From sequence record OZ346175.1: 64,000 nt of DNA; one strand, 5' to 3'. Positions 20,473 to 41,362 of the stretch are shown here, piece by piece. The translations under genes and the position numbers were made by a program. Under the pieces are notes generated by a model. It made no database searches. It was not told the origin of the DNA and saw only the letters and a list, made by a program, of their open reading frames with translations. The number at the start of each line of letters is the position of its first letter. Positions within the stretch are counted from its first letter, which is position 1. Source of the DNA: a phage.

Positions 20473-22818
20473 ATGGCAGATTACAAGTTGAGTGAATTAA
20501 ATTCAATTGATACAATTTGTTCAGACGACCTCCTTCATATCAGGGTTAAAAAGAGACCTGAAATGCTGGGTGATGAAGACCGTCGAATGACCTATCAAGA
20601 TTTCTTAGCATCTTTTAAACTTGAAAGATTTGTTCAGATTGCTGGCAGCACTATGACTGGTGACTTAGGGATTGTTAAGTTACTTTATGGTGGTAAGGCA
20701 GTCTTTGACCCAACAGGCTCTTCTGAGATTACTATTGGGGATGTTTTAAAGACTTTTAAAATTAACGCAAATGGTCTTAAACTAACTATTGCAGATGCTT
20801 CAAGGTCGGCAACTGTTTATCATACTCTGAATAAGCCAAGCCCTAATGAGCTTGGGATGAGAACTAATGAAGAGAATGATGCAAGATATGCAAGGTTGGC
20901 TGTTACAAACACATTTAACTCTAAACAGACCATTGTAGCAAATGGGGAACAGTTAACACTAAGGTCTCCTGTGAGTGGGGATAGTGCATACTCTGCTATT
21001 GTAGGTAGGGATGCAAGTAATGAAAAAACTTGGGCTATTGGGAACCTGATTAGGGGTAGTCTTGATGTTCAAATCGAGAGTAAATTAGGTTCCATCCTCA
21101 CTCTAGGCACGGCTGCTTCTTTTAATAGGTCTTTATCAATCAATGGTCAAGTGCAACCCTCTGACTTCTCTAACTTAGATGCTAGATATTTTACTCAGAC
21201 AGCAGCTAATCGGAGATTTGCACAGTTAACTGGTAATAATACCTTTAGTGGTGCAAATGTGTTTAATGGCTTTAACACAATTAAACGTAATGGTGAAGTG
21301 TTAAGGTTGCAAAATTCATCAGTTAGCCAGCCATTGTACATCAAGGCTATTGACTCTTCTGGTGCTAACAGGTGGTATGTTGGATGCGCCAACGGCGGTG
21401 ATGATGTATCACTAGAGAATTACAAAACTGGTGGTAAACTCACTATTGGTTCAAATGCCGCTATCAATACAACACTAAAAATCACTGGTCAAGTTCAACC
21501 TACAGATTGGACTAACATTGACTCTAGATACATTCCAGCAGCAACATTAAGTACAATTGCAAGAACTAATGCAAGTAACACGTTCACTGCAAAGCAGGTT
21601 ATTAAAACTGATGGTGAAGCTCTTATGTTACAAGGAAAGACAACCGCAGCACTTTACATTAGAGGTAAGGACTATGATGGAACGAATAGGTGGTATGTTG
21701 GTAATAACAGTGAGAGTGACACTCTTAATGTATATAACTATAAAACTGGTAAAACCCTAAGCATTGGTTCCCAAGTAGAAATTAATGCAACACTAAAAAT
21801 CACTGGTCAAGTACAACCTAGCAACTGGTCTAACTTAGATGCTAGATACTTCACTCAGGCAGCAGCTAATCGGAGATTTATGTATGCAGGTTCTACAGGA
21901 GAAGCTACAGAGCAGAATGCAGATGGTGTGGCATGGAACGCTAAAACAGGCTTATATAATGTAACCTCAACAAATGCTGGTTACACAGCACTTGTGTTTC
22001 AAATGTATCAGGGGGTGACCTCTTCTACTGCCTGTGCGCAATTAAAGTTCCAGTATAAAAACGGTGGAATGTGGTACAGAACATCTGTAGATAGTAAAGG
22101 TTTTGAAGCTAAGTGGTCTAAGGTTTACACAGAGGCTCAGAAACCAACCCCTTCAGAGCTTGGTGCATACACTAAAGCAGAAACTAACCAGAAGATTGCA
22201 CAGGCAGTAAGTGACTCTACAGACCTTAACAAAATCTATCCAGTAGGCATTGTAACGTGGTTTAACAGTAATGTTAACCCTAATACAGTACTGCCTGGTC
22301 TAACTTGGACGTACCTCAACAATGGTGTTGGTAGAACTATCAGAATTGCAGCAGCAAATGGTTCAGATGTTGCTACAACTGGTGGTTCAGACTCTGTGAC
22401 GTTAGCTGTTGGTAACTTACCTTCGCACACGCACAGTTTTTCTGCGACTACCTCATCGTTTAACTACGGAACAAAAAACACTAACACGACTGGTGCTCAC
22501 GCTCACTCTGTAAGTGGCTCTACTTCATCTGCTGGTAACCACAACCATTCCATTTCGTGGATTGGTCAGAACTCTACACACTACTCTGGTGGTGGTGGTG
22601 GTAGAATTGGTGTGGGGCCGGGGTACACTGATGCAGGTGGTGCTCACACCCACACAATCTCTGGTACTGCTGCTTCTGCTGGTAACCATGCTCACAGTGT
22701 AGGTATCGGTGCTCACACTCATACAGTTAGTGGTAACACTGGTGGTACAGGTTCTGGTTCAGCATTTAGTGTTACTAACCAGTTCTACAAGTTAATGGCT
22801 TGGGTAAGAACTGCTTAA
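20473..22818 (+). CDS. long tail fiber protein with internal tandem repeats and His-x-His C-terminal domain
   Basis: 781 aa; three ~110 aa repeats; collar-like segment; six HxH motifs; C-terminus ...[22 protein letters not shown] paralogous to upstream fiber. Confidence 0.8.
20908..21900 (+). repeat. intragenic tandem repeats (3 units of ~330 bp) within tail fiber gene
   Basis: Near-identical 49-mer TAACTTAGATGCTAGATA(T/C)TT(T/C)ACTCAG(A/G)CAGCAGCTAATCGGAGATTT at 21171-21219 and 21831-21879; AAAAATCACTGGTCAAGT(T/A)CAACCT at 21476 and 21795. Confidence 0.7.
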
Positions 22819-22825
22819 TCCCTTG

Positions 22826-22854
22826 TTGACTGATTGTTAAGATGGTGTTAATAT
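22826..22854 (+). promoter_or_regulatory. sigma70-like promoter TTGACT-N17-TAATAT
   Basis: -35 TTGACT 22826-22831, 17-nt spacer, -10 TAATAT 22849-22854; upstream of 22898 ORF. Confidence 0.5.
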
Positions 22855-22897
22855 TCTTTATGGGTATTCTCACCATCTTGGCTGATGAGGTGATTAA

Positions 22898-23092
22898 ATG
22901 CCTACAATCCTAGCAATTCTTCTAAAAAATCTAGGTAGCTTCTTCTGGAAACTCATTTTATCCCTTCTAAGTGAATACATGATTGAGAAAGTGTTCTTTA
23001 AGCTTGCAAGATACCTTGCGAGTAAAACAGACACACCTATTGATGATGAGTTCGTAGATAACTTAGAAAAAGCTTTTAAGGGGGAGAAATAA
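22898..23092 (+). CDS. small membrane protein (holin-like?)
   Basis: 64 aa, hydrophobic N-terminal helix, SD GAGGTGA 7 nt upstream. Confidence 0.5.
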   Translation: MPTILAILLKNLGSFFWKLILSLLSEYMIEKVFFKLARYLASKTDTPIDDEFVDNLEKAFKGEK

Positions 23093-23464
23093 ATGAAGTG
23101 GCTAGAGGAAGCTTTTAAAAATAATATTGGTGCAATTGTAGTTGGTATTTTTAGTGTTATTGGGATGTATACCACGATGCAAGTTTCGGATGGTAAACAA
23201 GAAGTGTCTATCACAACAAAGTTACAGCAGCTAGATAATTATTCCAAAAGTAATTATTCAGCTATTCGTGATTTACAGTCTGATATGAGGCTGCTTCAGC
23301 TAGGGATGGAGAACCAGAAAGTCCAGTTAGAGAATGTTAAGGGAGAGAACGCAAAACTTACTAAGACTCTTGATAAATTCTCTGATAGTGTGAACAATCT
23401 GGCTCAATCAGTATCAGCCCTCCAAGCTATTACTGAGAAGAACACAAAGAATACTGAAAAATAA
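23093..23464 (+). CDS. membrane-anchored coiled-coil protein
   Basis: 123 aa, N-terminal TM segment IGAIVVGIFSVIGMY then heptad-rich helical domain; SD AAGGGGGAG. Confidence 0.5.
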   Translation: MKWLEEAFKNNIGAIVVGIFSVIGMYTTMQVSDGKQEVSITTKLQQLDNYSKSNYSAIRDLQSDMRLLQLGMENQKVQLENVKGENAKLTKTLDKFSDSVNNLAQSVSALQAITEKNTKNTEK

Positions 23465-23471
23465 AATTTTA

Positions 23472-23498
23472 AGGCTCCTTTTTACGGGAGCCTTTTTT
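23472..23498. terminator. bidirectional rho-independent terminator at convergent junction
   Basis: AGGCTCC-loop-GGGAGCCT hairpin with TTTTTT on + strand and A/T run on - side, between convergent gene blocks. Confidence 0.65.
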
Positions 23499-23502
23499 GT
23501 TT

Positions 23503-24402
23503 TTACTTACCTACTGATAAAGGTGCTTCAATCTTCCCTGCATGTTGGTAGTTGTTAATGCCACCAATAAAATCACTTGCAGTAAGGTGTTTTAGGTCAC
23601 TTAAAGTATTAAGTTGTAGACCAATCTCAAAAGTTGGTGCATGGAACTCTTCATTGTTCATCAGTTCATAAACCTGCTTCATATGATTCTGATAAATCTG
23701 AGTATCTCCAAAGACACCTATCAAGTACCGTGGAGTGTATCCAGTCATCTTACAAAGAACTTCCAGAATAAAACCATAAGATGCAATATTAAACGGAAGT
23801 CCTAAAAAGGTGTCTACTGAACGCTGATACCACTGTAAGTCAACTTCACCCTCGTTAGTAATATAAATCTGAAACAGAACATGGCAAGGTGCTAGAGCCA
23901 TTGAGTTTGCTGCAATATCTGCTGCATTCCAAGCATTCACAAGCATGTAACGGTCTGTGATATCACCCTTCATCTTCGTTACTAAGGTCTCTAGCTGGTC
24001 TACAACACAACCGTTATGACCTTCAAAGTTTCTCCACTGAACTCCGTAGATTCTTCCACCTGCATCTTCTAACCAATCTTGTTCAGAGGAATAGTTAGAG
24101 CTTAACCAACGTTTAAAATCATCTGACCAGATAGTCCAGCGTTCCCCATCATTTTCACCCCAAGTACGGTAACGGAGTTCGCCAAGTTTATTCTCACCAT
24201 TCAGGAACCATAAAGCTTCCCCAATAACTTGCCGCGTAAACACCTGTTTAGAGGTTAAGAGTGGGAAACCAGTTCTCATATCAAAACGAAACTGTGGTGG
24301 AGCAAATGCAGAGATAACATCCCCAGTTCGTGTAGTACGCAGTTCACCAACAGATAGAACATGGTTCAGGATATTTTTGTAACTCAAATCAGCTTGTGAC
24401 AT
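23503..24402 (-). CDS. thyA: thymidylate synthase
   Basis: ThyA signatures: FPLLTSK, GVQWR, APCH active-site Cys, YQRSVDTFLGLPFNIASY, GDTQIYQNH. Confidence 0.9.
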   Translation of the reverse strand: MSQADLSYKNILNHVLSVGELRTTRTGDVISAFAPPQFRFDMRTGFPLLTSKQVFTRQVIGEALWFLNGENKLGELRYRTWGENDGERWTIWSDDFKRWLSSNYSSEQDWLEDAGGRIYGVQWRNFEGHNGCVVDQLETLVTKMKGDITDRYMLVNAWNAADIAANSMALAPCHVLFQIYITNEGEVDLQWYQRSVDTFLGLPFNIASYGFILEVLCKMTGYTPRYLIGVFGDTQIYQNHMKQVYELMNNEEFHAPTFEIGLQLNTLSDLKHLTASDFIGGINNYQHAGKIEAPLSVGK

Positions 24403-24403
24403 A

Positions 24404-24949
24404 TCAAAAGTGTCCTTTTACTTGTGGAACATAAATCTCAAAGGTTGCTTTACCATCATCTGAGGGTCTTGACTGCACCTTTGCAAATACACGGTTATCA
24501 TACAGTTTATCGAAGAAGTTTTCAAAAGGTAAATACACAGTGGCCTCTTCAGTGACTTTATGGAAAACTGTATGGAAAACTACACCAGCATACGGTAAAG
24601 CATTGACAAGGACACCTGCACCACCAATTACAAAGACATCTTCATCAATAGAGCTATCAAGATACTTCAAAAATGCTCCAAATGACTCTTTACTGGCTTT
24701 AGCATACATTACATCATCTTTGCCAAAGTCTATGCCTAAGTATGGTACAGAATTTGTTAAGATGAGGTTTGCACGTTCTGGTAAAGGTTTACTACCCAGA
24801 GTCTTAAAAGTCTCATTACCCATGACTACTAAGTTATTTTTAGTGAGTCTCTTAAACTCTTGCATGTCCTGTTTATGTCGAGGCCACGGCATACCAGTTG
24901 GAGTACCAAATTCACCGTTTTCACCACTTGCAAATATTAGCTTAATCAT
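24404..24949 (-). CDS. folA: dihydrofolate reductase
   Basis: DHFR motifs GMPWPRH, VVMGNETFKTL, LPERANLILT; adjacent to thyA. Confidence 0.85.
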   Translation of the reverse strand: MIKLIFASGENGEFGTPTGMPWPRHKQDMQEFKRLTKNNLVVMGNETFKTLGSKPLPERANLILTNSVPYLGIDFGKDDVMYAKASKESFGAFLKYLDSSIDEDVFVIGGAGVLVNALPYAGVVFHTVFHKVTEEATVYLPFENFFDKLYDNRVFAKVQSRPSDDGKATFEIYVPQVKGHF

Positions 24950-25206
24950 TTTGTAAACCCTCTCTTAATGAACCAGTTGATGACACTCTTCACAACTTTA
25001 CTACGATGGTAGATAAAATGTGGAGAGTGTTGGTATGAACCATAAGCCCAGAAAGCGATAATTTCATTACACCCTGTGCATCGGGTACTTTCTTCAGCAA
25101 TATGACCGTTGACTATTTCACTTACTTCACCTTGTAAGTCTGTACACCCACAATGTGGACATCGGATAGGTGTTCCATCAGACTCATAGCAGTGTTCAAT
25201 TTTCAT
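24946..25206 (-). CDS. small zinc-ribbon protein
   Basis: 86 aa with CPHCGC...CTGC cysteine pairs. Confidence 0.5.
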   Translation of the reverse strand: MKIEHCYESDGTPIRCPHCGCTDLQGEVSEIVNGHIAEESTRCTGCNEIIAFWAYGSYQHSPHFIYHRSKVVKSVINWFIKRGFTK

Positions 25207-25659
25207 CTATTTAACCTCAAAAACTGGTTCAAGAACCAATATAAAGTCTACACAGTAATCTTCTTCATCCAGAATACCATCAAAGTTCTTAGGAACGAAG
25301 TCGAAGAGGCTCATAACAAAACAGTCAGAAGTGACCTTGATAGTTCCTCCCATGTTTTCTACAGTTAATATTGTACGGCTTTCTGTTACCTCCCTCAGAA
25401 GATTACCCACAAAGTCATCTAAGAAGTACTTCATTAGCGACTTGAAACCTTTAGGGTAATCTGTACCAGAGTATGTTTCAATCTGTGGTACAAGTTTAAC
25501 ATTTATACTAGTCTTTGTTAAGAACGTTTTAGAGAACATACTATCAGGTAGCTTACAAACAGTCTTTCCAGTACCTTCATGCTCAATCTCAACAAAACCA
25601 GCTTCATCGCCACATGTAACTATTTTAAAAGATGCTTCATTCTCATACTGTGAAGCCAT
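25207..25659 (-). CDS. hypothetical protein
   Basis: 150 aa ORF in leftward early block. Confidence 0.5.
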   Translation of the reverse strand: MASQYENEASFKIVTCGDEAGFVEIEHEGTGKTVCKLPDSMFSKTFLTKTSINVKLVPQIETYSGTDYPKGFKSLMKYFLDDFVGNLLREVTESRTILTVENMGGTIKVTSDCFVMSLFDFVPKNFDGILDEEDYCVDFILVLEPVFEVK

Positions 25660-25721
25660 AAACTTTTAAGCATTTCTTTAAGGAAGTCTGCATGAGCATC
25701 TTGTAAGAAGATATCAATCAT
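25620..25721 (-). CDS. possible small ORF (33 aa)
   Basis: ATG preceded by AGGTGA SD at 6 nt spacing; overlaps downstream gene start; below ORF-track size cutoff. Confidence 0.25.
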   Translation of the reverse strand: MIDIFLQDAHADFLKEMLKSLWLHSMRMKHLLK

Positions 25722-25734
25722 AGTTAATCACCTA

Positions 25735-26094
25735 TTATGGGAACAAACACTTAATGTCATCGTTTTTGAAAACAAAACTTGTGTAATTATGACCATCAAC
25801 ATCCAGCCAAACAGCCTGAACATCTACACCATCAAGATTTTGGTAAAGCTCTTTGATGAAGTGGTCTTTCACAATCTGACTGCTAGTTGTTTCCAGCTTA
25901 ATGTTCGAGATTGCTGAACCTACAGCCATATAGCCCATGACACGTTTCTTCTCAGTATGCTTAATCTTACCATCTTTGTAAGCCATAATGAGATTGGAAA
26001 GAATCTTTACACCATAATACTTTTCAAGGTGAGTAGGTACACCATAAAAGCCTAATGCGAAGTTTTCAGAGTGGATAATGTTTTCACGTTTCAT
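25735..26094 (-). CDS. hypothetical protein
   Basis: 119 aa ORF, tightly packed. Confidence 0.5.
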   Translation of the reverse strand: MKRENIIHSENFALGFYGVPTHLEKYYGVKILSNLIMAYKDGKIKHTEKKRVMGYMAVGSAISNIKLETTSSQIVKDHFIKELYQNLDGVDVQAVWLDVDGHNYTSFVFKNDDIKCLFP

Positions 26095-26095
26095 A

Positions 26096-26395
26096 TTAGT
26101 CTGCCAACCTTAAATTGAAATTAACACCAAATTTTTCACATACTTCCAACATATACTCAAGTGAAACATTCCCAGTGAGGTGGATTATGTTGGATACACG
26201 AGCTTGAGAGATACCACAAATTTTAGCAACTTGCTCTTGAGAAAGACCTCTGGATTTAATCTCTCTCTTAAAACGATGTGCAACGAAGTCTCTCATTTCG
26301 TCTACATCCATTGGACAAATATAACTCTCCATTTCAGCCTCTCTATCAGCCTCCCAATCATCTTGTGGGGCATAAGGGTCAAAAACCTCATTCAT
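26096..26395 (-). CDS. XRE-family helix-turn-helix DNA-binding protein
   Basis: HTH segment LSQEQVAKICGISQARVSNI; start set at internal ATG 26395 (track start 26425 is TTG). Confidence 0.6.
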   Translation of the reverse strand: MNEVFDPYAPQDDWEADREAEMESYICPMDVDEMRDFVAHRFKREIKSRGLSQEQVAKICGISQARVSNIIHLTGNVSLEYMLEVCEKFGVNFNLRLAD

Positions 26396-26600
26396 CTTTC
26401 TTCTTCCGTTTGCGTGAAGTGTCAATCAATGAATCTATGTTTGTAGCTCTAACCTTTTCACGTTCATCGTTAAGATAATCATCAAGAGCCTTTTCAATCT
26501 GTGAATCATCTTGACAGATGACTGTAAAGACTGTAAAGCCATCTGTATCATCAATTATCTTACCATAACCGCTTCTGGGATGTAACTTTTTAAGAGCCAT
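26388..26600 (-). CDS. hypothetical protein
   Basis: 70 aa ORF, co-directional. Confidence 0.4.
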   Translation of the reverse strand: MALKKLHPRSGYGKIIDDTDGFTVFTVICQDDSQIEKALDDYLNDEREKVRATNIDSLIDTSRKRKKKDE

Positions 26601-26985
26601 ACCAAATACCTGTGCAGCTTCTGTTTTCTAAGAAATACTCAACACCGTACATAGCTTTTTGCATCAAATCTTCTTTAAACTGGATACGATGATTTAGCAT
26701 AGCCTGTACATCAATATCTTCATGGTGCTTCTCTTTAATGTTTGCAGATTGCAGGAAATACTCTGCAAGAACACGATACTGATAGTCAGTTACTTTATCA
26801 GTCATCTCTGTCAAAGACTCTTCAGAGATTGGTTTAAGTAGCTCACCATTAGCTAGAGCAACACCTTTAACAATCTGGCAAGTGTCTTCTGGAACACCTG
26901 ATAAGTCCACATTTGGAAGTTCTGTTGCATTAACTGGTAAATTCATTGCCATAACCATTGCAGCAGCTAATAAAACCTTTTTCAT
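26590..26985 (-). CDS. secreted/periplasmic protein with signal peptide
   Basis: N-terminal MKKVLLAAAMVMAMNLPVNA signal-peptide-like sequence; SD AGGTT upstream. Confidence 0.55.
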   Translation of the reverse strand: MKKVLLAAAMVMAMNLPVNATELPNVDLSGVPEDTCQIVKGVALANGELLKPISEESLTEMTDKVTDYQYRVLAEYFLQSANIKEKHHEDIDVQAMLNHRIQFKEDLMQKAMYGVEYFLENRSCTGIWYGS

Positions 26986-27385
26986 AATAACCTCAAAGTT
27001 ATATTAAATTTTGTATTACATTGAGTATAAAAATAAGCTATAACACCTGACTTGTCAACAGATTTTATAGCTTATTTGGCAGATTTTTTATAAGGCTACT
27101 GCCATCCTTCCATACCCTACCTTACCACACCCAACCATACCTAACCAAACTACACCATACAATACCTTATTAAAAGACCCTCTTAAAGACCTTTTAAAAA
27201 GGTAAGTCTCATTTTAATGTAGATGAGACTAACTACCCATACCAAACAGCACCGCACTATGCCTTACCCCACCTCACCGAGCCTCGCCCCACATCACTTA
27301 AAAAACCCTTTTCAAAGACTCTTAAGTGATGTTGGTGAGTACCCGTTGGTTTATGCTGCTCAGTATACTCACCAAATTTTCTATG
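26986..27385. other. ~400-bp non-coding island with hairpins and CA-rich degenerate repeats
   Basis: 11-bp inverted repeat ATAAGCTATAA/TTATAGCTTAT (27033-27075); palindrome CCTTTTAAAAAGG; inverted repeat CATCACTTAA/TTAAGTGATG (27289-27334); CA-rich tracts 27103-27172 and 27230-27290. Confidence 0.5.
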
Positions 27386-29505: not shown

Positions 29506-29733
29506 TCAGAGGTTAATATTAATACGTTCGCCCTTAAGGACTCCAGTACGGTCCCTTGCAATCTTACCATCAACAATAAGGATATGCGCAGACCTTAAAG
29601 AGTCATTATTAAAACCTTTTACGAACTTACTAGGCATCACTACAATAAGCATCTCCTGAATCAACTCTGGAGTATAGCAGTTATCATGAAGTTGTTGGAT
29701 AACGTCTGCAAGTGTCATTTTTGATGTCTCCAA
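29506..29733 (-). CDS. hypothetical protein
   Basis: 75 aa ORF, co-directional. Confidence 0.45.
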   Translation of the reverse strand: METSKMTLADVIQQLHDNCYTPELIQEMLIVVMPSKFVKGFNNDSLRSAHILIVDGKIARDRTGVLKGERININL

Positions 29734-29924
29734 TACTCAATGTCAATAAGTTCTTGTGCAATGCTTTTCAGATTACCTTTCAAGAAAACCTTCTCAGAAC
29801 CTGAAAGAGATGAATTGTCAATTAACCTGTTCATTCTCTCAAACAACTTCTGCTTACGGTTCTTGATAGTTTCCTTTGAAGCGCCTTTCATCATCGCTGC
29901 ATGGGTTCTTCCACGATGGCTCAT
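29715..29924 (-). CDS. hypothetical protein
   Basis: 69 aa ORF with AGGAGG SD; TTGACAAGGTG motif ~50 nt upstream. Confidence 0.5.
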   Translation of the reverse strand: MSHRGRTHAAMMKGASKETIKNRKQKLFERMNRLIDNSSLSGSEKVFLKGNLKSIAQELIDIEYWRHQK

Positions 29925-29975
29925 AAGTCCTCCTATACAAGATATTGTATAAGGTACTCTTCCCTGAGCACCTTG

Positions 29976-30503
29976 TCAACTTAGTTTTGCAAACTCTCCG
30001 TGGAGTTTAATAGCAGCTTCACAGTAAGCTTTATGGGCTTCTTCAGGTGTGTCATGGTAACCTAAAAACATCTTCTTACCTTTATAACTTATCTGTGCGA
30101 CCCACTTACCAGACTTCTTCTTCAGGCTTACACCCTTATAGCCTGATTTATTGGTGGATAGTTTGCTTTTATTCCAAGCACTTTGGTAGTCATCTGCTTC
30201 TCTTAAGTTTACAATCCTGTTATCAAGGGAGTCTCCATTAATATGGTCAATAACACCTTTCGGCAACCTACCATACATGTACAGCCATGCGAGTCTGTGT
30301 GCTTTATGTGCTTTCTTGTCAAAATAGATAGTAATCTGCTTATGACCAGTTGAGTCAATCTGGATGCTCCCCGCTACCTGTCCTGCGTACTGACTATTAA
30401 AAACTTTAACAGCCTTTGAGTCGCCCTCTCTACGAAGCCAAGTAAAGACCCCTGTTTCGGGGTCATAGTGTAGTAGTTCCTTTAAACGTTCTTTTGTAAT
30501 CAT
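29976..30503 (-). CDS. HNH homing endonuclease with AP2-like DNA-binding domain
   Basis: HNH segment VIDHINGDSLDNRIVNLREA; AP2-like SGYKGVSLKKKSGKWVAQISYKGKKMFLGYHDTPEEAHKAY; start set at ATG 30503 by conservation with paralog at 40374. Confidence 0.8.
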   Translation of the reverse strand: MITKERLKELLHYDPETGVFTWLRREGDSKAVKVFNSQYAGQVAGSIQIDSTGHKQITIYFDKKAHKAHRLAWLYMYGRLPKGVIDHINGDSLDNRIVNLREADDYQSAWNKSKLSTNKSGYKGVSLKKKSGKWVAQISYKGKKMFLGYHDTPEEAHKAYCEAAIKLHGEFAKLS

Positions 30504-30513
30504 TTTGTCACCA

Positions 30514-31070
30514 TTAATGCACTTCCAACCACGATTTACCAACCTTTGCTGTACCAGTTACAAGTGTTTCTTTCCTCAAACCTAAGTTTTTTGAAGCTTG
30601 TCCATACATCCAGTCAGCAATTGCTTTCATATCATGTGTCATACCCTCTGGACATTCCCAACTATTTTCATCGTGATATGCCAGAAGTAACCTTGCTCCG
30701 ATAGCTGGTTTTCGAGCATTCAGTTTTGTCAGGCCATCTTCACAGGCTTTTCTTGCTGCTAGGTTGATGGCCTCATTCTGAATCTGTGCTTCCGAACTCA
30801 TCAGGAGGTAGTTCAGTAGTTTATGTGGAGATTTGCACCATATCCATGCTCCAGCGACCCTGATATAACCACCTTTAGCAATTGAAGAATTCTTCCCAAA
30901 AACCTCTTCCAGAGCCTTTTTAGACGCCTTAAAATCGGCTTCTAAGCTATCAAGTAACTTCTTAATCTTTGGCAGACGCATATAGTAAGTTTGTTTAGTT
31001 AATGCACCTTCCTCTGTAGAAGCTGCCTTAATGGTTTTGGCAAACTTCTCATCACCTGCACCGAACAATA
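30514..31070 (-). CDS. DNA polymerase (family A) exon 2, C-terminal portion
   Basis: Begins LLFGAGDEK (motif B continuation, cf. T7 YGFLYGAGDEK) and contains motif C LLAYHDENSWECP; in-frame TGA 3 codons upstream of first sense codon. Confidence 0.8.
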
Positions 31071-31338
31071 CATCTGGTCAATACACTCGCAAGGTGTACC
31101 AGTTCTCTTATGAACTTCTCCGCATTTCTACGGAGTGTCGGACTATATCACGTAGTAGTAATACTACCGTTGCACTTGGGAATGGTCATTGGCTTACCAC
31201 CCTACTCTACTCAGTTCATACGTTAAGTATGCTTTTCGATAGTCTCTGAACGTTCCTCTTAAGAGGCTTCGCTGCTGATTACCATATCTTTACAGACTTA
31301 GGCTTCCAGCAATTCACAACGTTTTACATGCGCCACTG
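31071..31338 (-). ncRNA. group I self-splicing intron (ORF-less) within DNA polymerase gene
   Basis: On - strand RNA: 5' exon ends ...AUGCGU pairing with IGS GCGCAU (U.G at splice site); core elements P-like UUGCUGGAAG, Q AAUCAGCAGCG, R GUUCAGAGACUA, S GAUAUAGUCC; terminal G; splicing restores ...AKNGIYA-LLFGAGDEK. Confidence 0.75.
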
Positions 31339-33481
31339 ACGCATAAATGCCATTTTTGGCTTTCTTACGACCTTTTGTAATCTCGTGGAGAAGTTCCTCA
31401 TCCTGTGTCTCCCTACAACGAACAATATCTTCTTCCTTGTTCAGACCAAAGTAAATACTGTTCAGTGTATGCGCATCAGTCCCTGTGTAGACTTCATAGA
31501 GGTCGTTCTCAGCATCATAACGAAGATACTTGTCAGTTTCTGGATTAAGGTGCTTATCAAGATGTTTGCAATAATATCTCCCATCTTCTTGCTTGGTAAA
31601 TTCTACTGACTCTTTACCTTCAGTTACTGCTTTAGTGAACTCTTTATCACCCATAAAGTTACACAGTAAAACAAGCTGTGCAGAGTTCTGGTCAACAGAA
31701 ACAATGTTAGTCCCCTCTTCACAAATCCACACTGCCCTCATAGGTGCTCCATAGACAGCAGCACCAGACGGTACGTTTACAATACCATATTGTGTCATAC
31801 GTCCAGTTGAAGTACCAAACACCATTGCACCAGCACTAAGGCGACCATCAGGACGAATCTGGTTCAACCAACCTTTTTCATCATCCTTTGAGTTCTCAAT
31901 AGTTCTGCGTCGGTGCATCAAAGTATAGTACTTAGCAATCTTCTGTCCAAGCTCACCTTCAATCGTATCATAAGATGATTCAGTAAGTTTTGGTGAAGTA
32001 CGGATTAAGCAAGGCTCAAGCAAATCTGTGTACTTCTTCACAGACCAGTTATGCTCAATGTACTGTACACCTTCATGTTCAACATAACTCAAACCACACC
32101 GCTCAACCATTTCCTGCCACTTAGGATGTTTTGTAATCATCTTTTTATTGTCTTTGAAACGACAAACTTTGACAGGGCGACCATCTGAATCTTTCTTGTA
32201 GTTCCAGTCATCTGGAATCCAACCAACTGATTTCAAGTAGTCTTTAACAACTGCTACCTGAGTCATATGAGAAACTTCAAACTCAATTGGTGTATATGGT
32301 GCATCAATCAAACCTGTGTAGCGACTTGACTCAAGTTCAAAGTGATTGACAACGTGACTGTTATAGTACTTCACAGTCTTGACTGTTTTTACTGGTTTCC
32401 AGTCTTTGCATTTTTTGCCAATCTTTGCATTCAACTCGTTGCAGATTGCACGAGCATCCTTCATCGCTACAAAACCCTCTTTGTACTCTTCACCAGTTAC
32501 AGAGTTGGTTGGTGTATAGCAATTTCTCTTTTCAATGTTAAAAATCTTTGTAGTTGGCTTACCAAATGGCTTGATTTCATATGTCTGCATCTCACCATTA
32601 CGTACCTGCTGACGATACTTTGTCTTAGGGTACTTGGTAATTCTTTTCAGTCCATCTGCATGACCAAATGCTTCAACATACTCATTCCAAGCTTTTGCAA
32701 ACTCTTCTCCAGTGACTTTACCTTTGGTCTTAATAGTTGGAGGTAGATGTGGTTCAACCTCTGAAGCAAGCTCATTAGTCAACTTGTCAAGCTCCTTTAC
32801 ATGGAACTCCATAAGCTCTTTATCAGCTTTCCAACCATTGATAGCTTGTTGACTCATCCAGAAAGATGTTTCTTTAGCTCGCATGTAAGTTTCATAAGTG
32901 TCTATGCCACACTTCTTAAGCTTGAGATACTCGTTATCAAGTGCCCGTTTAGTTTTGGCGTTAATACGGATATCTTCTACAACACGAGTGAAGATTTCTG
33001 CATTCCACACACCCCAATGCTCAATCTCTGGCTTACGAACACCAACACGAGCACCCCATGCAGCCAAGCCATGAGCACCTTTATAACCCTTTGGAGTTGG
33101 TCTATCCATCCACTGAACACGAGACTGGATAAGAGAATCCTGAAAGAAATTACTCCACGGCTTACACTTTGGATTATCAAAGTTCCATAAATCAGGTGCA
33201 ATGTGATTAAAAACCCACCAGTCATAACCGAGACCGTTATGGATGCAAAGACGTTTTGCCTTTAACGCAAATTCAACACCTTCACGTAAGCCACCCTTAA
33301 TGTACTTGGTATACTTGTGACCGAGGATAGGTTCATCCGTAAAGACCCATACAGGTGGCTCTTCATCGTCAGATTTATAGTCTGCGAAAGCCATTACGTG
33401 CACTTTAGTGAACTCAAGGAGTAAACCATCAGTTTCTGTATCACCAACTAAATGTAAGTTTTTAAAATCTACGTTTTCCAT
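31339..33481 (-). CDS. DNA polymerase (family A) exon 1, 3'-5' exonuclease and N-terminal polymerase domains
   Basis: Exo I motif LVGDTETDGL; ends in motif B start GRKKAKNGIYA; start set at ATG 33481 with GAGGGAG SD (track start 33511). Confidence 0.85.
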
Positions 33482-33738
33482 TTTTACTCCCTCTAAAATC
33501 ATTAACCTCATACATTACTGCAAAAAATTATAAAAAGCAAGTTGACAATGCACTTGACAAGGTGTTAATCTTTGCGAAGTGGGTTTTTACTTAAAAGGTT
33601 ACTTAACAGTTTAACTATACAGATACTTTAAAACTCTTAAAAGATTATTTAATAGCTTTTAAAAAGCTTTAAAGTATAACGTATAGAATACGTTAAGATA
33701 AAAGATTAAAACTTAATAGTTACTTAAAAGAGGCTTAC

Positions 33739-39349: not shown

Positions 39350-40396
39350 ATGGAGAAGTACACATTAACAAAGCTTCCCGATTCAGTTACACATGTCTTT
39401 ATTGACTCTGACAGTATTGCCTATAAAGGTGCTTGTGTAGTTGAGAAAGCAAAATATAAATATGTCAATAAACTCACAGCAGAAGAATCTGATTCGTTTG
39501 ATAATGCGAAAGATGCTGCAAGATGGTTAGCAGACCAGAGAATCCTTGTGGAAGAACTTGGCCTGACATTTGATGAAGATGAATGGGAAAGACAGACTTG
39601 GAAAGAAGCTAAGAGTGAAAAAGAAGCTATCATGGCTACTCAACAGGTTCTTCAGGAATGGCTTAAGGTTGTTGGTAAAGAGAGAACTTGGGTAGGCTAT
39701 TTAACAGAGAAAGGTGTGCATAAGCATAAAGACATTAAAGGTCTTGAGCACCAATATCAAGGTAACCGTAAAGATGCTGTCACACCAACACACTTAGTTG
39801 CTTGTCGTGAGTATCTTCTGTCAAGACCAGAGTTCAAACTAATTCTTGATGGATTTGAAGCCGACTCTATCGTTATTGCTAAAGCTGAAAAGATGGGTAA
39901 AAAGGCTGCCTTAATGAGTATTGATAAAGACCTTCGCCAAGCTGAAGGGACTTACTGCATTGATATGACCTATGAAAAGTCACCTTTGATTTTCATTGCT
40001 GATAACAACGTTGGTGAAATTTGGGATTGCCCAATAAAATCGACACCAAAAGCTAAGAAGACAGTTGGGGTAGGTTTTAAATTTCTTTGTTACCAAGCTG
40101 TGGCTGGTGATAATGCTGATAATTATTTTGGTTTAAAGGGCGTTGGTAAGGCTACTGTAATGAAAGCTCTTGAAGGTAAAACCACCTACAAAGAGTGTCT
40201 TGATGCAATTTATGAGCTTTATGCTAAGAAAGAGTCATACACTTATGTCTCGTGGGATGGTCAAACAATTACCAGAACACCTTTAGAGTTAATGCAGCAA
40301 CACTTTTTCTTAGCTTATCAGGAAAGAAACAAGAAAGACGATTTTACTTTTGATAAGTATGGGTGGACACCAAATGTTAACTCAACAAACTCTTAA
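39350..40396 (+). CDS. 5'-3' exonuclease / flap endonuclease
   Basis: PIN-like N-terminus (VFIDSDSIAYKGA), H3TH-like GLKGVGKATVMKAL. Confidence 0.7.
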   Translation: MEKYTLTKLPDSVTHVFIDSDSIAYKGACVVEKAKYKYVNKLTAEESDSFDNAKDAARWLADQRILVEELGLTFDEDEWERQTWKEAKSEKEAIMATQQVLQEWLKVVGKERTWVGYLTEKGVHKHKDIKGLEHQYQGNRKDAVTPTHLVACREYLLSRPEFKLILDGFEADSIVIAKAEKMGKKAALMSIDKDLRQAEGTYCIDMTYEKSPLIFIADNNVGEIWDCPIKSTPKAKKTVGVGFKFLCYQAVAGDNADNYFGLKGVGKATVMKALEGKTTYKECLDAIYELYAKKESYTYVSWDGQTITRTPLELMQQHFFLAYQERNKKDDFTFDKYGWTPNVNSTNS

Positions 40397-40865
40397 AGAG
40401 TACCTACATTATGACCCCGAAACAGGGGTCTTTACTTGGATTAAGAAATCTGCTAGACACACAAAAATTGGCTCTGTTGCAGGTACAAACTTAAGAGGGT
40501 ATACCAGAATTTATTTGTTTGGTAAGGGCTATTATGCACATACCCTAGCCGTTCTGTATATGGATGGATACCTACCTGAGTGTGTTGACCATAAAAATCA
40601 TGTAACACTAGACAATCGCTGGGTAAATCTTAGGGCATGTACGTTATCAGAGAACCAATGTAATAGGTTGCTCAATAAGAACAATAAATCAGGTGTTAAA
40701 GGTGTGTACTACAAAAAACAGTATGGTAAGTGGTCTACACAGATAACTTTTAAGAAGAGGGTCTACTTCTTCGGCAACTATGACACTATTGATGAAGCAG
40801 CAGAGGTTGTAAATAGGGAACGTCAACGTTTACACAAAGAGTTTGCTAATAAAGGTGATGAATGA
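40374..40865 (+). CDS. HNH homing endonuclease with AP2-like domain (paralog of 29976-30503)
   Basis: Shared N-terminus with paralog (LKEYLHYDPETGVFTW), HNH segment VDHKNHVTLDNRWVNLR, AP2-like SGVKGVYYKKQYGKWSTQI. Confidence 0.8.
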   Translation: MLTQQTLKEYLHYDPETGVFTWIKKSARHTKIGSVAGTNLRGYTRIYLFGKGYYAHTLAVLYMDGYLPECVDHKNHVTLDNRWVNLRACTLSENQCNRLLNKNNKSGVKGVYYKKQYGKWSTQITFKKRVYFFGNYDTIDEAAEVVNRERQRLHKEFANKGDE

Positions 40866-41362
40866 GAAAAATAAAAGGTTTTGGCAATTGCCCTGAATAT
40901 GGACATTGGGTTTCACTATGTGGTGAAGTTGACCCAGCAAAGCACTTTGGTTTTGTCTACCTAGTGTACTGCAAAAAGACTGGACAGTACTATTTGGGTA
41001 AGAAACAGTTTAACAGTGTGACCAAAAGAAAAGTTGCTGGGAAGACTCGGAAGAAGATAGTCACTAAGGAAAGTGATTGGATGACTTATGAGACTTCTTC
41101 TGAGTATATTAAAAAAGATATTGAGAGTTTTGGAAAAGAATTTTTTGACTTTTACATTATTCAGACCTACTACACAAAAGGTGGCCTAGCCTATGGTGAA
41201 GCAAACCTTCAACATAAATTCGATGTAATGACAAAAAGGATTGACTCTAAGCTCAGACTCTTCTACAATGCCAATATTGCAGCAATTAAGTTTATCACTA
41301 AAGAAACTTATGAAGATGCTGAAAAAAGAATCCATAAGGTCATGAAAGCAAATTGTGCTTGA
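40862..41362 (+). CDS. GIY-YIG domain protein (putative nuclease)
   Basis: GFVYLVYCKKTGQYYLGKK resembles GIY-(X10)-YIG motif. Confidence 0.45.
   Translation: MRKIKGFGNCPEYGHWVSLCGEVDPAKHFGFVYLVYCKKTGQYYLGKKQFNSVTKRKVAGKTRKKIVTKESDWMTYETSSEYIKKDIESFGKEFFDFYIIQTYYTKGGLAYGEANLQHKFDVMTKRIDSKLRLFYNANIAAIKFITKETYEDAEKRIHKVMKANCA

Follow-up and report, generated by a model that had tools for sequence, protein, structure and literature searches.

Results

Gene content of the polymerase and exonuclease loci

The window analysed in this study is a 64,000-nt stretch of phage DNA (sequence record OZ346175.1). It comes from a Felix O1-like phage of the genus Felixounavirus, and about 260 GenBank records matched it at 90-97% identity. 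The features of its polymerase (pol) and exonuclease (exo) loci are collected in Table 1.

Table 1. Features of the window at the pol and exo loci
Feature	Position	Strand	Basis
Right edge of the HNH-A cassette, TTGACA overlapped by the TGA stop	29974..29979	-	Comparison with empty sites
HNH-A, free-standing HNH_3 + AP2 homing-endonuclease gene (putative), 175 aa	29976..30503	-	Pfam, phrog_99, relatives
Hairpin GACCCCGAAACAGGGGTC inside HNH-A, codons DPETGV	30447..30464	-	Sequence and fold
DNA polymerase exon 2, including the stop codon	30514..31070	-	Pfam DNA_pol_A, C-terminal part; spliced translation
Left edge of the HNH-A cassette, last 21 nt of the polymerase gene (aaatcgtggttggaagtgcat)	30517..30537	-	Comparison with relatives
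ORF-less group I intron, 268 nt, in polymerase motif B (between KNGIYA and LLFGAG)	31071..31338	-	Rfam RF00028
DNA polymerase exon 1	31339..33511	-	ORF list and splice reconstruction
5′-3′ exonuclease gene, last ~13 codons part of the HNH-B cassette	39350..40396	+	Weak Pfam 5_3_exonuc matches
HNH-B, paralogous HNH_3 + AP2 homing-endonuclease gene (putative), 163 aa	40374..40865	+	Pfam, identity to HNH-A
Hairpin GACCCCGAAACAGGGGTC inside HNH-B, identical to that of HNH-A	40413..40430	+	Sequence
SegE-type GIY-YIG nuclease gene, 166 aa, conserved syntenic Ounavirinae core gene	40862..41362	+	Pfam, synteny

The initial annotation had described two paralogous HNH-AP2 ORFs, one just 3′ of the intron-containing polymerase gene and the other overlapping the 3′ end of the 5′-3′ exonuclease gene, and all of its coordinates held. 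HNH-A (ATG at 30503, TGA at 29976) starts 10 nt past the polymerase stop codon (30514-30516), and HNH-B (ATG at 40374, TGA at 40865) begins within the exonuclease gene (stop at 40396), whose last 23 nt it shares. The HNH-B stop codon in turn overlaps the ATG of ORF 40862-41362 in the sequence ATGA. When the two proteins were compared, 42% of residues were identical over 172 aa (E 6e-40), and both carried the N-terminus LKE(L/Y)LHYDPETGVFTW. No third paralogue was found among the ORFs of at least 60 aa in the window.

Profile searches also bore out the shared domains that had been claimed, with one qualification concerning AP2. Pfam HNH_3 (PF13392; cut-off 24.8 bits) was matched above gathering by HNH-A (57 bits, 1.5e-15) as well as by HNH-B (44.6 bits, 1.1e-11). 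For AP2 (PF00847; cut-off 33.3 bits), HNH-A scored above gathering (47.1 bits, 3e-12), and HNH-B scored below it (19.5 bits, 1.2e-3), although the segment concerned aligns with the AP2 domain of HNH-A. Moreover, the AP2 region of HNH-A matched solved plant AP2/ERF domains (WRI1, E 6.6e-8). HNH-A falls in phage family phrog_99 (4.6e-74), a large family of which HNH-B is also a member. Neither protein lacks the catalytic His and Asn residues: His87, Asn95, and Asn99 are kept in HNH-A (DH(87), DN(95), N(99)LR), and His73, Asn81, and Asn85 in HNH-B (DH(73), DN(81), N(85)LR). The third ORF, likewise described beforehand as GIY-YIG-like and directly following HNH-B, matched Pfam SegE_GIY-YIG (PF19835) at 2.3e-27 and 96.1 bits (cut-off 25).

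In GenBank relatives, all three ORFs are already labelled as HNH or GIY-YIG (homing) endonucleases, and in relatives with 95-99% identity the annotation is HNH homing endonuclease. Six HNH endonuclease genes were counted in the genome paper of Felix O1 (PMC3185647), and the variable regions of Felixounavirus genomes are HNH regions (PMC9951933). The presence of HNH-AP2 homing genes at both loci is thus ordinary and already known for the genus, from GenBank labels and from Felix O1 in 2010. Among the matching records, MG065664 and MG065668 ('Campylobacter phage A132/A126') and one 'Staphylococcus' record were 93-99% identical to the Felixounavirus region; the hosts named in them are probably mistaken, or contamination is present.

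The polymerase intron and its forms in relatives

The intron scored 64.2 bits against Rfam RF00028 (gathering threshold 50). Its boundaries were placed by comparison with the intronless phage bumzen, so that the 5′ exon ends in ..GCGU and the intron in ..AUG; a U precedes the 5′ splice site and a G stands at the 3′ end of the intron, as in group I introns. Splicing in silico restored the reading frame and gave a product colinear with the bumzen polymerase.

The intron was found in 97 of the ~260 Felixounavirus records. When the window was compared with five loci of relatives (L037, L033, L020, L021, and L025), the intron copies formed a degeneration series. The form of ~800 nt (801 nt; for example LNA6) has an intact Endonuclease VII-type ORF of 161 aa (Pfam 2.7e-19); in the 780-nt form of VpaE1 this ORF is frameshifted by a 22-nt deletion; the ~310-nt form of warpig and S19cd is a deletion remnant in which the last ~18 nt of the ORF are left; and the 268-nt form of the window is compact and ORF-less. 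The window intron has the hairpin CCTCTTAAGAGG at the place where, in relatives, an extended stem carries the ORF in its terminal loop. Given that the same intron (at least 95% identical) occurs in exon backgrounds that differ by ~20%, the intron has moved. Intron conversion tracts are very short.

Synonymous variation is concentrated in the FGAGD codons immediately 3′ of the insertion site, a hot spot with at least seven third-position combinations (window positions 31040-31070 and 31339-31351). The intronless phages bumzen, HY02, Z31, AN17P8, SP116, and Felix O1 differ at the insertion site by 11 synonymous changes in 33 nt, the background being otherwise identical. On a first reading, such a recoded site was taken as selected resistance to an endonuclease; equally, it could be the resident sequence, the intron-linked version being a short co-conversion tract. 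In two records, MW006475 (GEC_vB_BS) and MF370225 (ST11), the intron or exon 1 lies a few hundred nt from the downstream junction; polymerase exon 2 and the HNH gene seem to be missing there, whether by true deletion or by faulty assembly.

Both HNH-AP2 genes occupy slots that are empty in some relatives

The pol locus was compared across 41 loci of relatives, mostly individual GenBank records, and a search of IMG/VR with the polymerase exon 2 protein as query yielded 16 loci. Where the slot has no HNH gene, as in wV8, TTAGTA comes after the polymerase stop codon and TTGACAAGGTGCTCA... after that, with the next gene beyond it. The window differs in that a cassette of ~540 nt stands in place of TTAGTA only. 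At the right edge of this cassette, TTGACA opens the conserved intergenic stretch that leads up to ORF 29715-29924. The 21-mer at its left edge travels with one HNH allele, designated A, whatever the exon 2 background, being identical in SUSP1/2, SP22, and ev78 and 2 nt off in SapYZU01; its last 18 nt show 6 synonymous differences from HNH-less genomes (agctggcttgaggtacac). Some relatives (UAB_Phi87 [L013], pEP20, JH2, OPT-SAL01, and S.Kent 1-2-1) have an additional, non-HNH insertion of ~215 nt between the polymerase stop and the downstream gene.

Across the 41 loci, the slot was found in several states. The A allele encodes proteins with 93-100% aa identity to HNH-A of the window, the A′ allele 87%, and other alleles 54, 53, 48.6, and 47%; a copy in a Mooglevirus reaches 76%; and the slot is empty at 8 loci. 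At least a partial match to HNH-A was present in 171 GenBank records and a full-length copy in 55; the records without a full-length match share the last 69-146 nt or the N-terminal island only. That the alleles have just the 5′ island and these last 69-146 nt in common fits the replacement of one cassette by another. Moreover, nucleotide identity of HNH-A was 95-96% to S19cd, SP22, and SUSP2, and exon 2 of SUSP1/2 was only 76% identical to that of the window despite the close HNH-A; bumzen and NBSal004, with exon 2 at 97% identity, nevertheless carry an 89% HNH allele. Judged from these alignments, HNH identity and exon 2 flank identity are decoupled, and the flanks are mosaic.

Similar variation was seen at the exo locus, where 21 genomes were sampled. 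The HNH gene is absent from 9 of them, and in HNH-less genomes such as warpig the exonuclease gene directly overlaps the GIY-YIG start. The allele of the window was present in 4 of the 21 genomes (the window counted), and the remaining HNH-bearing genomes hold an allele of 51-58% aa identity (56-58% in Felix O1 and others, Felix O1 itself being at 56%). The exonuclease C-terminus is ...FDKYGWTPNVNSTNS in genomes with HNH-B and ...FKKYNWEPCMNED in HNH-less ones; HNH-bearing genomes end in ...DKYGWTPNVNSTNS where HNH-less ones have ...KKYNWEPCMNED. The window-type HNH-B allele and the GIY-YIG gene were found together in 21 records.

Each HNH gene thus occupies an exact intergenic slot beside an essential replication gene, and in close relatives this slot may be empty or occupied, either by the same gene or by a diverged allele. 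The final codons of the neighbouring gene also differ, each cassette having a version of its own. The comparison with relatives lacking the insertions, which had been proposed as a check, therefore defined empty sites at both the pol locus (8/41) and the exo locus (9/21). The mobile-element traffic proposed for the region is borne out for HNH-A and HNH-B by presence and absence, allele replacement, and mosaic flanks, but it does not extend to the GIY-YIG gene, a single-copy syntenic core gene.

These combined data make it very probable that the paralogues HNH-A and HNH-B are both free-standing homing-endonuclease genes, of the HNH_3 + AP2 type (phrog_99), that the intron is a separate element, and that the GIY-YIG gene belongs to the core genome. 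Such footprints are what homing-endonuclease genes of the free-standing kind would be expected to leave, and cleavage by HNH-A and HNH-B is inferred. In a mixed infection, the HNH enzyme, positioned by its AP2 domain and N-terminal region, would nick or cut an HNH-less genome near the empty slot; the likely targets would be the 3′ ends of the polymerase and exonuclease genes. Recombinational repair from the HNH-bearing genome would then copy in the cassette together with a flank of variable length, and the carrier genome would be shielded from the enzyme it encodes by the synonymous differences at the cassette edge. Part of this pattern would also be expected of HNH genes that are simply dispensable and that undergo deletion and ordinary recombinational exchange.

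Linkage between the ORF-less intron and the polymerase-adjacent HNH gene

The initial annotation had also proposed that HNH-A may act with the ORF-less intron, from which it is separated by 557 nt in the window. The strongest observation in this direction is one of linkage. Among the 97 intron-bearing records (IME338 apart), none had an ORF-less intron beside an intact HNH-less junction. When a composite query was used, the intron was found beside an HNH-less junction in 28 intron-bearing records, 26 of which carry the ~800-nt ORF-containing intron; the other two were NJ12 (310-nt intron, with an HNH gene in between) and GEC_vB_BS (exon 2 apparently missing). ORF-containing introns adjoin an HNH-less junction in ~26 of ~37 cases, and the ORF-less introns number ~47 of 268 nt and ~13 of 310 nt, as scaled from 60 evenly spaced records of the 97. 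The constant position of ORF-less introns beside a polymerase-adjacent HNH gene suggests hitch-hiking of the intron with that gene.

Such linkage could reflect trans (collaborative) homing, in which the polymerase-adjacent HNH enzyme mobilises the ORF-less intron. In its strict form, the enzyme must target the intron insertion site (PMC3984707); in a looser form, it would cut nearby, and the intron 557 nt away would be co-converted. That HNH-A targets the insertion site was at one point suggested by the first 38 loci, in which HNH-A-type alleles never occurred with an ordinary uninterrupted site (0/13), and was refuted by four added loci. SP22, SapYZU01, and VpaE1_ev78 have the A allele (93-95% aa), yet their insertion site is uninterrupted and of the HNH-less kind, which is seen in wV8 and most genomes without intron and HNH gene; that of SapYZU01 is identical to the site in the HNH-less L010. 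Because the A allele coexists with an ordinary uninterrupted site in three genomes, the insertion site is unlikely to be the target of HNH-A, and strict trans homing is contradicted. Alleles of 48-54% likewise coexist with the ordinary site.

We regard trans homing, taken as a whole, as possible but doubtful. In addition to the linkage, it is favoured by the fact that two apparently independent ORF-less forms, the compact one and the 310-nt deletion remnant, both show the association, by the movement of the intron between divergent exon backgrounds, and by precedents in other systems (PMC3984707, PMC2790892). However, the HNH alleles found beside ORF-less introns are of four kinds or more, so that there is no specific partnership; exon sequence of the resident type lies between the intron-linked and the HNH-linked conversion tract in S19cd; and, given that the intron of relatives encodes its own Endonuclease VII-type enzyme, the ORF-less copy in the window need not depend on the HNH gene. 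The genomes are also phylogenetically non-independent, and linkage over 557 nt would yield the association on its own. The proposed cooperation is thus supported in part only. A more far-reaching reading, possible but doubtful, is that in Felixounaviruses the ORF-less intron is maintained and spread solely as a passenger of the HNH-AP2 gene, of whatever allele, downstream of the polymerase, through co-conversion over ~560 nt.

A hairpin common to the Felixounavirus HNH-AP2 genes

Both HNH genes contain the same hairpin ~39 nt into the ORF. Its stem is perfect (GACCCC-N6-GGGGTC; RNA dG -11.4 kcal/mol), and it was flagged as terminator-like by a terminator scan. The hairpin was constant in 31 of the 31 Felixounavirus HNH-AP2 copies examined, whose alleles are 42-58% identical in amino acids; the pol-locus allele of Felix O1 keeps the stem with a different loop. 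The codons used are rare ones, CCC accounting for 4% of Pro, GGG for 9% of Gly, and GTC for 10% of Val. We also considered that the hairpin might be a general feature of the HNH-AP2 protein family. This was rejected, as only Felixounavirus copies have the stem: the same peptide is encoded by 120 IMG/VR genes, and the stem was present in 12 of these, all Felixounavirus-like. The hairpin may serve to attenuate expression of the endonuclease, or it may be a gene-conversion island. Another HNH-AP2 gene containing this hairpin was observed on the Felixounavirus contig L126 from IMG/VR, in the region that corresponds to window positions 22638-27245. Given that the window has no HNH-AP2 gene at 22.6-27.2 kb, L126 points to a further homing-gene slot, which is empty in the window.

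An invariant nucleotide hairpin in every allele suggests phage-specific control, and both HNH genes are intact and apparently translationally coupled to essential genes. These features would suit proteins that have been domesticated, either as regulators that bind DNA by AP2 or as weapons against relatives in a mixed infection. We nevertheless consider domestication improbable, since the genes are dispensable, as seen from their absence at 8/41 pol loci and 9/21 exo loci, and since their alleles are replaced rather than conserved. Moreover, marker exclusion itself follows from homing-endonuclease activity, so that a role as a weapon is not truly distinct from the homing-endonuclease reading given above.

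The GIY-YIG gene is syntenic and single-copy

The GIY-YIG gene was found at 773 places in 770 records, that is, as a single-copy gene, and in ~237 of the ~260 Felixounavirus records. It also directly follows the exonuclease gene in Kolesnikvirus (an Erwinia phage; 61-62% aa) and in the unclassified Ounavirinae phage Arno18 (50% aa). Mooglevirus records contain a homologue of 86-88% aa identity, and single-copy homologues occur in T4-like cyanophages. The divergence tracks taxonomy (96%, 87%, 62%, 50%). When five homologues from Ounavirinae and cyanophages were aligned, Y33, Y44, G46, R63, E113, and N136 were invariant. A sequence search against solved structures returned nothing for this protein, and a Pfam search of its 166 aa returned no DNA-binding domain beyond the nuclease domain. 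The gene is often mislabelled 'NAD synthetase' (phrog_447).

A single-copy, syntenic, non-polymorphic gene of this kind offers no evidence of mobile traffic, and the GIY-YIG gene is best read, on gene order and divergence, as an ancestral core gene at whose junction with the exonuclease gene HNH-B has been inserted. Because the catalytic residues are kept, some nuclease role in the same region is possible. That this ORF is instead an active free-standing homing endonuclease, forming a tandem mobile pair with HNH-B, is highly improbable: the SegE_GIY-YIG match, the conserved catalytic Tyr, Tyr, Arg, Glu, and Asn, and the homing-endonuclease label in some GenBank records speak for it, whereas its constant single copy, its fixed position after the exonuclease gene in Kolesnikvirus and Arno18 with divergence that follows taxonomy, and its small size without a detected additional DNA-binding domain speak against it.

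Discussion

The two HNH-AP2 genes of the window conform closely to what is found elsewhere in the genus. The HNH-AP2 endonucleases of Felix O1 and other Felixounavirus phages share the same two insertion sites and the same domain architecture, and nothing essential differs in the window, where the pol locus has the A allele and the exo locus a 99% VpaE1-type one. In Felix O1 the corresponding alleles are at 47% (pol) and 56% (exo), and no intron is present. The link between AP2 and HNH proteins was reportedly drawn by Magnani et al. in the Plant Cell in 2004, for proteins of Felix O1 and RB49. None of the present findings would surprise a specialist.

Several well-studied phage endonucleases offer points of comparison. 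HNH nicking endonucleases of the I-HmuI type are encoded within DNA polymerase introns of Bacillus phages and use DNA-binding modules other than AP2. HNH-A resembles them in its His-Asn-Asn HNH core and in its tie to a family A DNA polymerase gene, but differs in being free-standing, rather than intron-encoded, and in carrying an AP2 domain. The nuclease domain of ORF 40862-41362 fits the model of T4 SegE, a free-standing GIY-YIG homing endonuclease (PF19835), and its catalytic residues are kept; unlike a gene of that kind, however, the gene in the window is syntenic and single-copy across the Ounavirinae sampled and shows no presence/absence polymorphism.

The arrangement at the pol locus is most reminiscent of T4 MobE and the defunct I-TevIII intron (PMC2790892), where a free-standing HNH gene likewise adjoins an essential nucleotide-metabolism or replication gene whose group I intron lacks a working endonuclease. 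MobE acts in trans on the I-TevIII intron, and the ORF-less introns studied here are always HNH-linked. The two cases differ in that the HNH alleles next to the Felixounavirus intron vary, in that this case is known from sequence linkage rather than from genetics, and in that the intron's own gene is of the Endonuclease VII type and intact in some relatives. Cyanophage S-PM2 provides another parallel, with F-CphI and the ORF-less psbA intron (PMC6083498; reviewed in PMC3984707), in that an endonuclease gene stands free beside a gene interrupted by an ORF-less intron. However, the defining target of F-CphI, the intron insertion site, is contradicted for HNH-A, and the Endonuclease VII motif, which F-CphI uses, belongs in the present case to the enzyme that the intron of relatives encodes rather than to the free-standing gene.

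For annotation, these data mean that the two HNH-AP2 genes should be treated as routine mobile genes, and that the regions surrounding them are best left out of phylogenies. The split polymerase is one spliced gene, not two, and the conserved core gene behind the labels 'NAD synthetase' and 'GIY-YIG homing endonuclease' encodes a putative nuclease. If the ORF-less intron did prove to be a passenger of the neighbouring HNH gene, the intron and the HNH gene would form a composite mobile unit in which the intron would be free to lose its Endonuclease VII-type gene, and Felixounavirus would offer a natural, population-scale example of the MobE/I-TevIII situation. The ~260 genomes hold every stage of an intron and its homing gene, from an intact ORF through frameshifted copies, a deletion remnant, and a compact ORF-less form to an empty site. 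Because these stages lie beside a slot with several competing HNH alleles, they make a convenient natural system for putting trans homing to the test.
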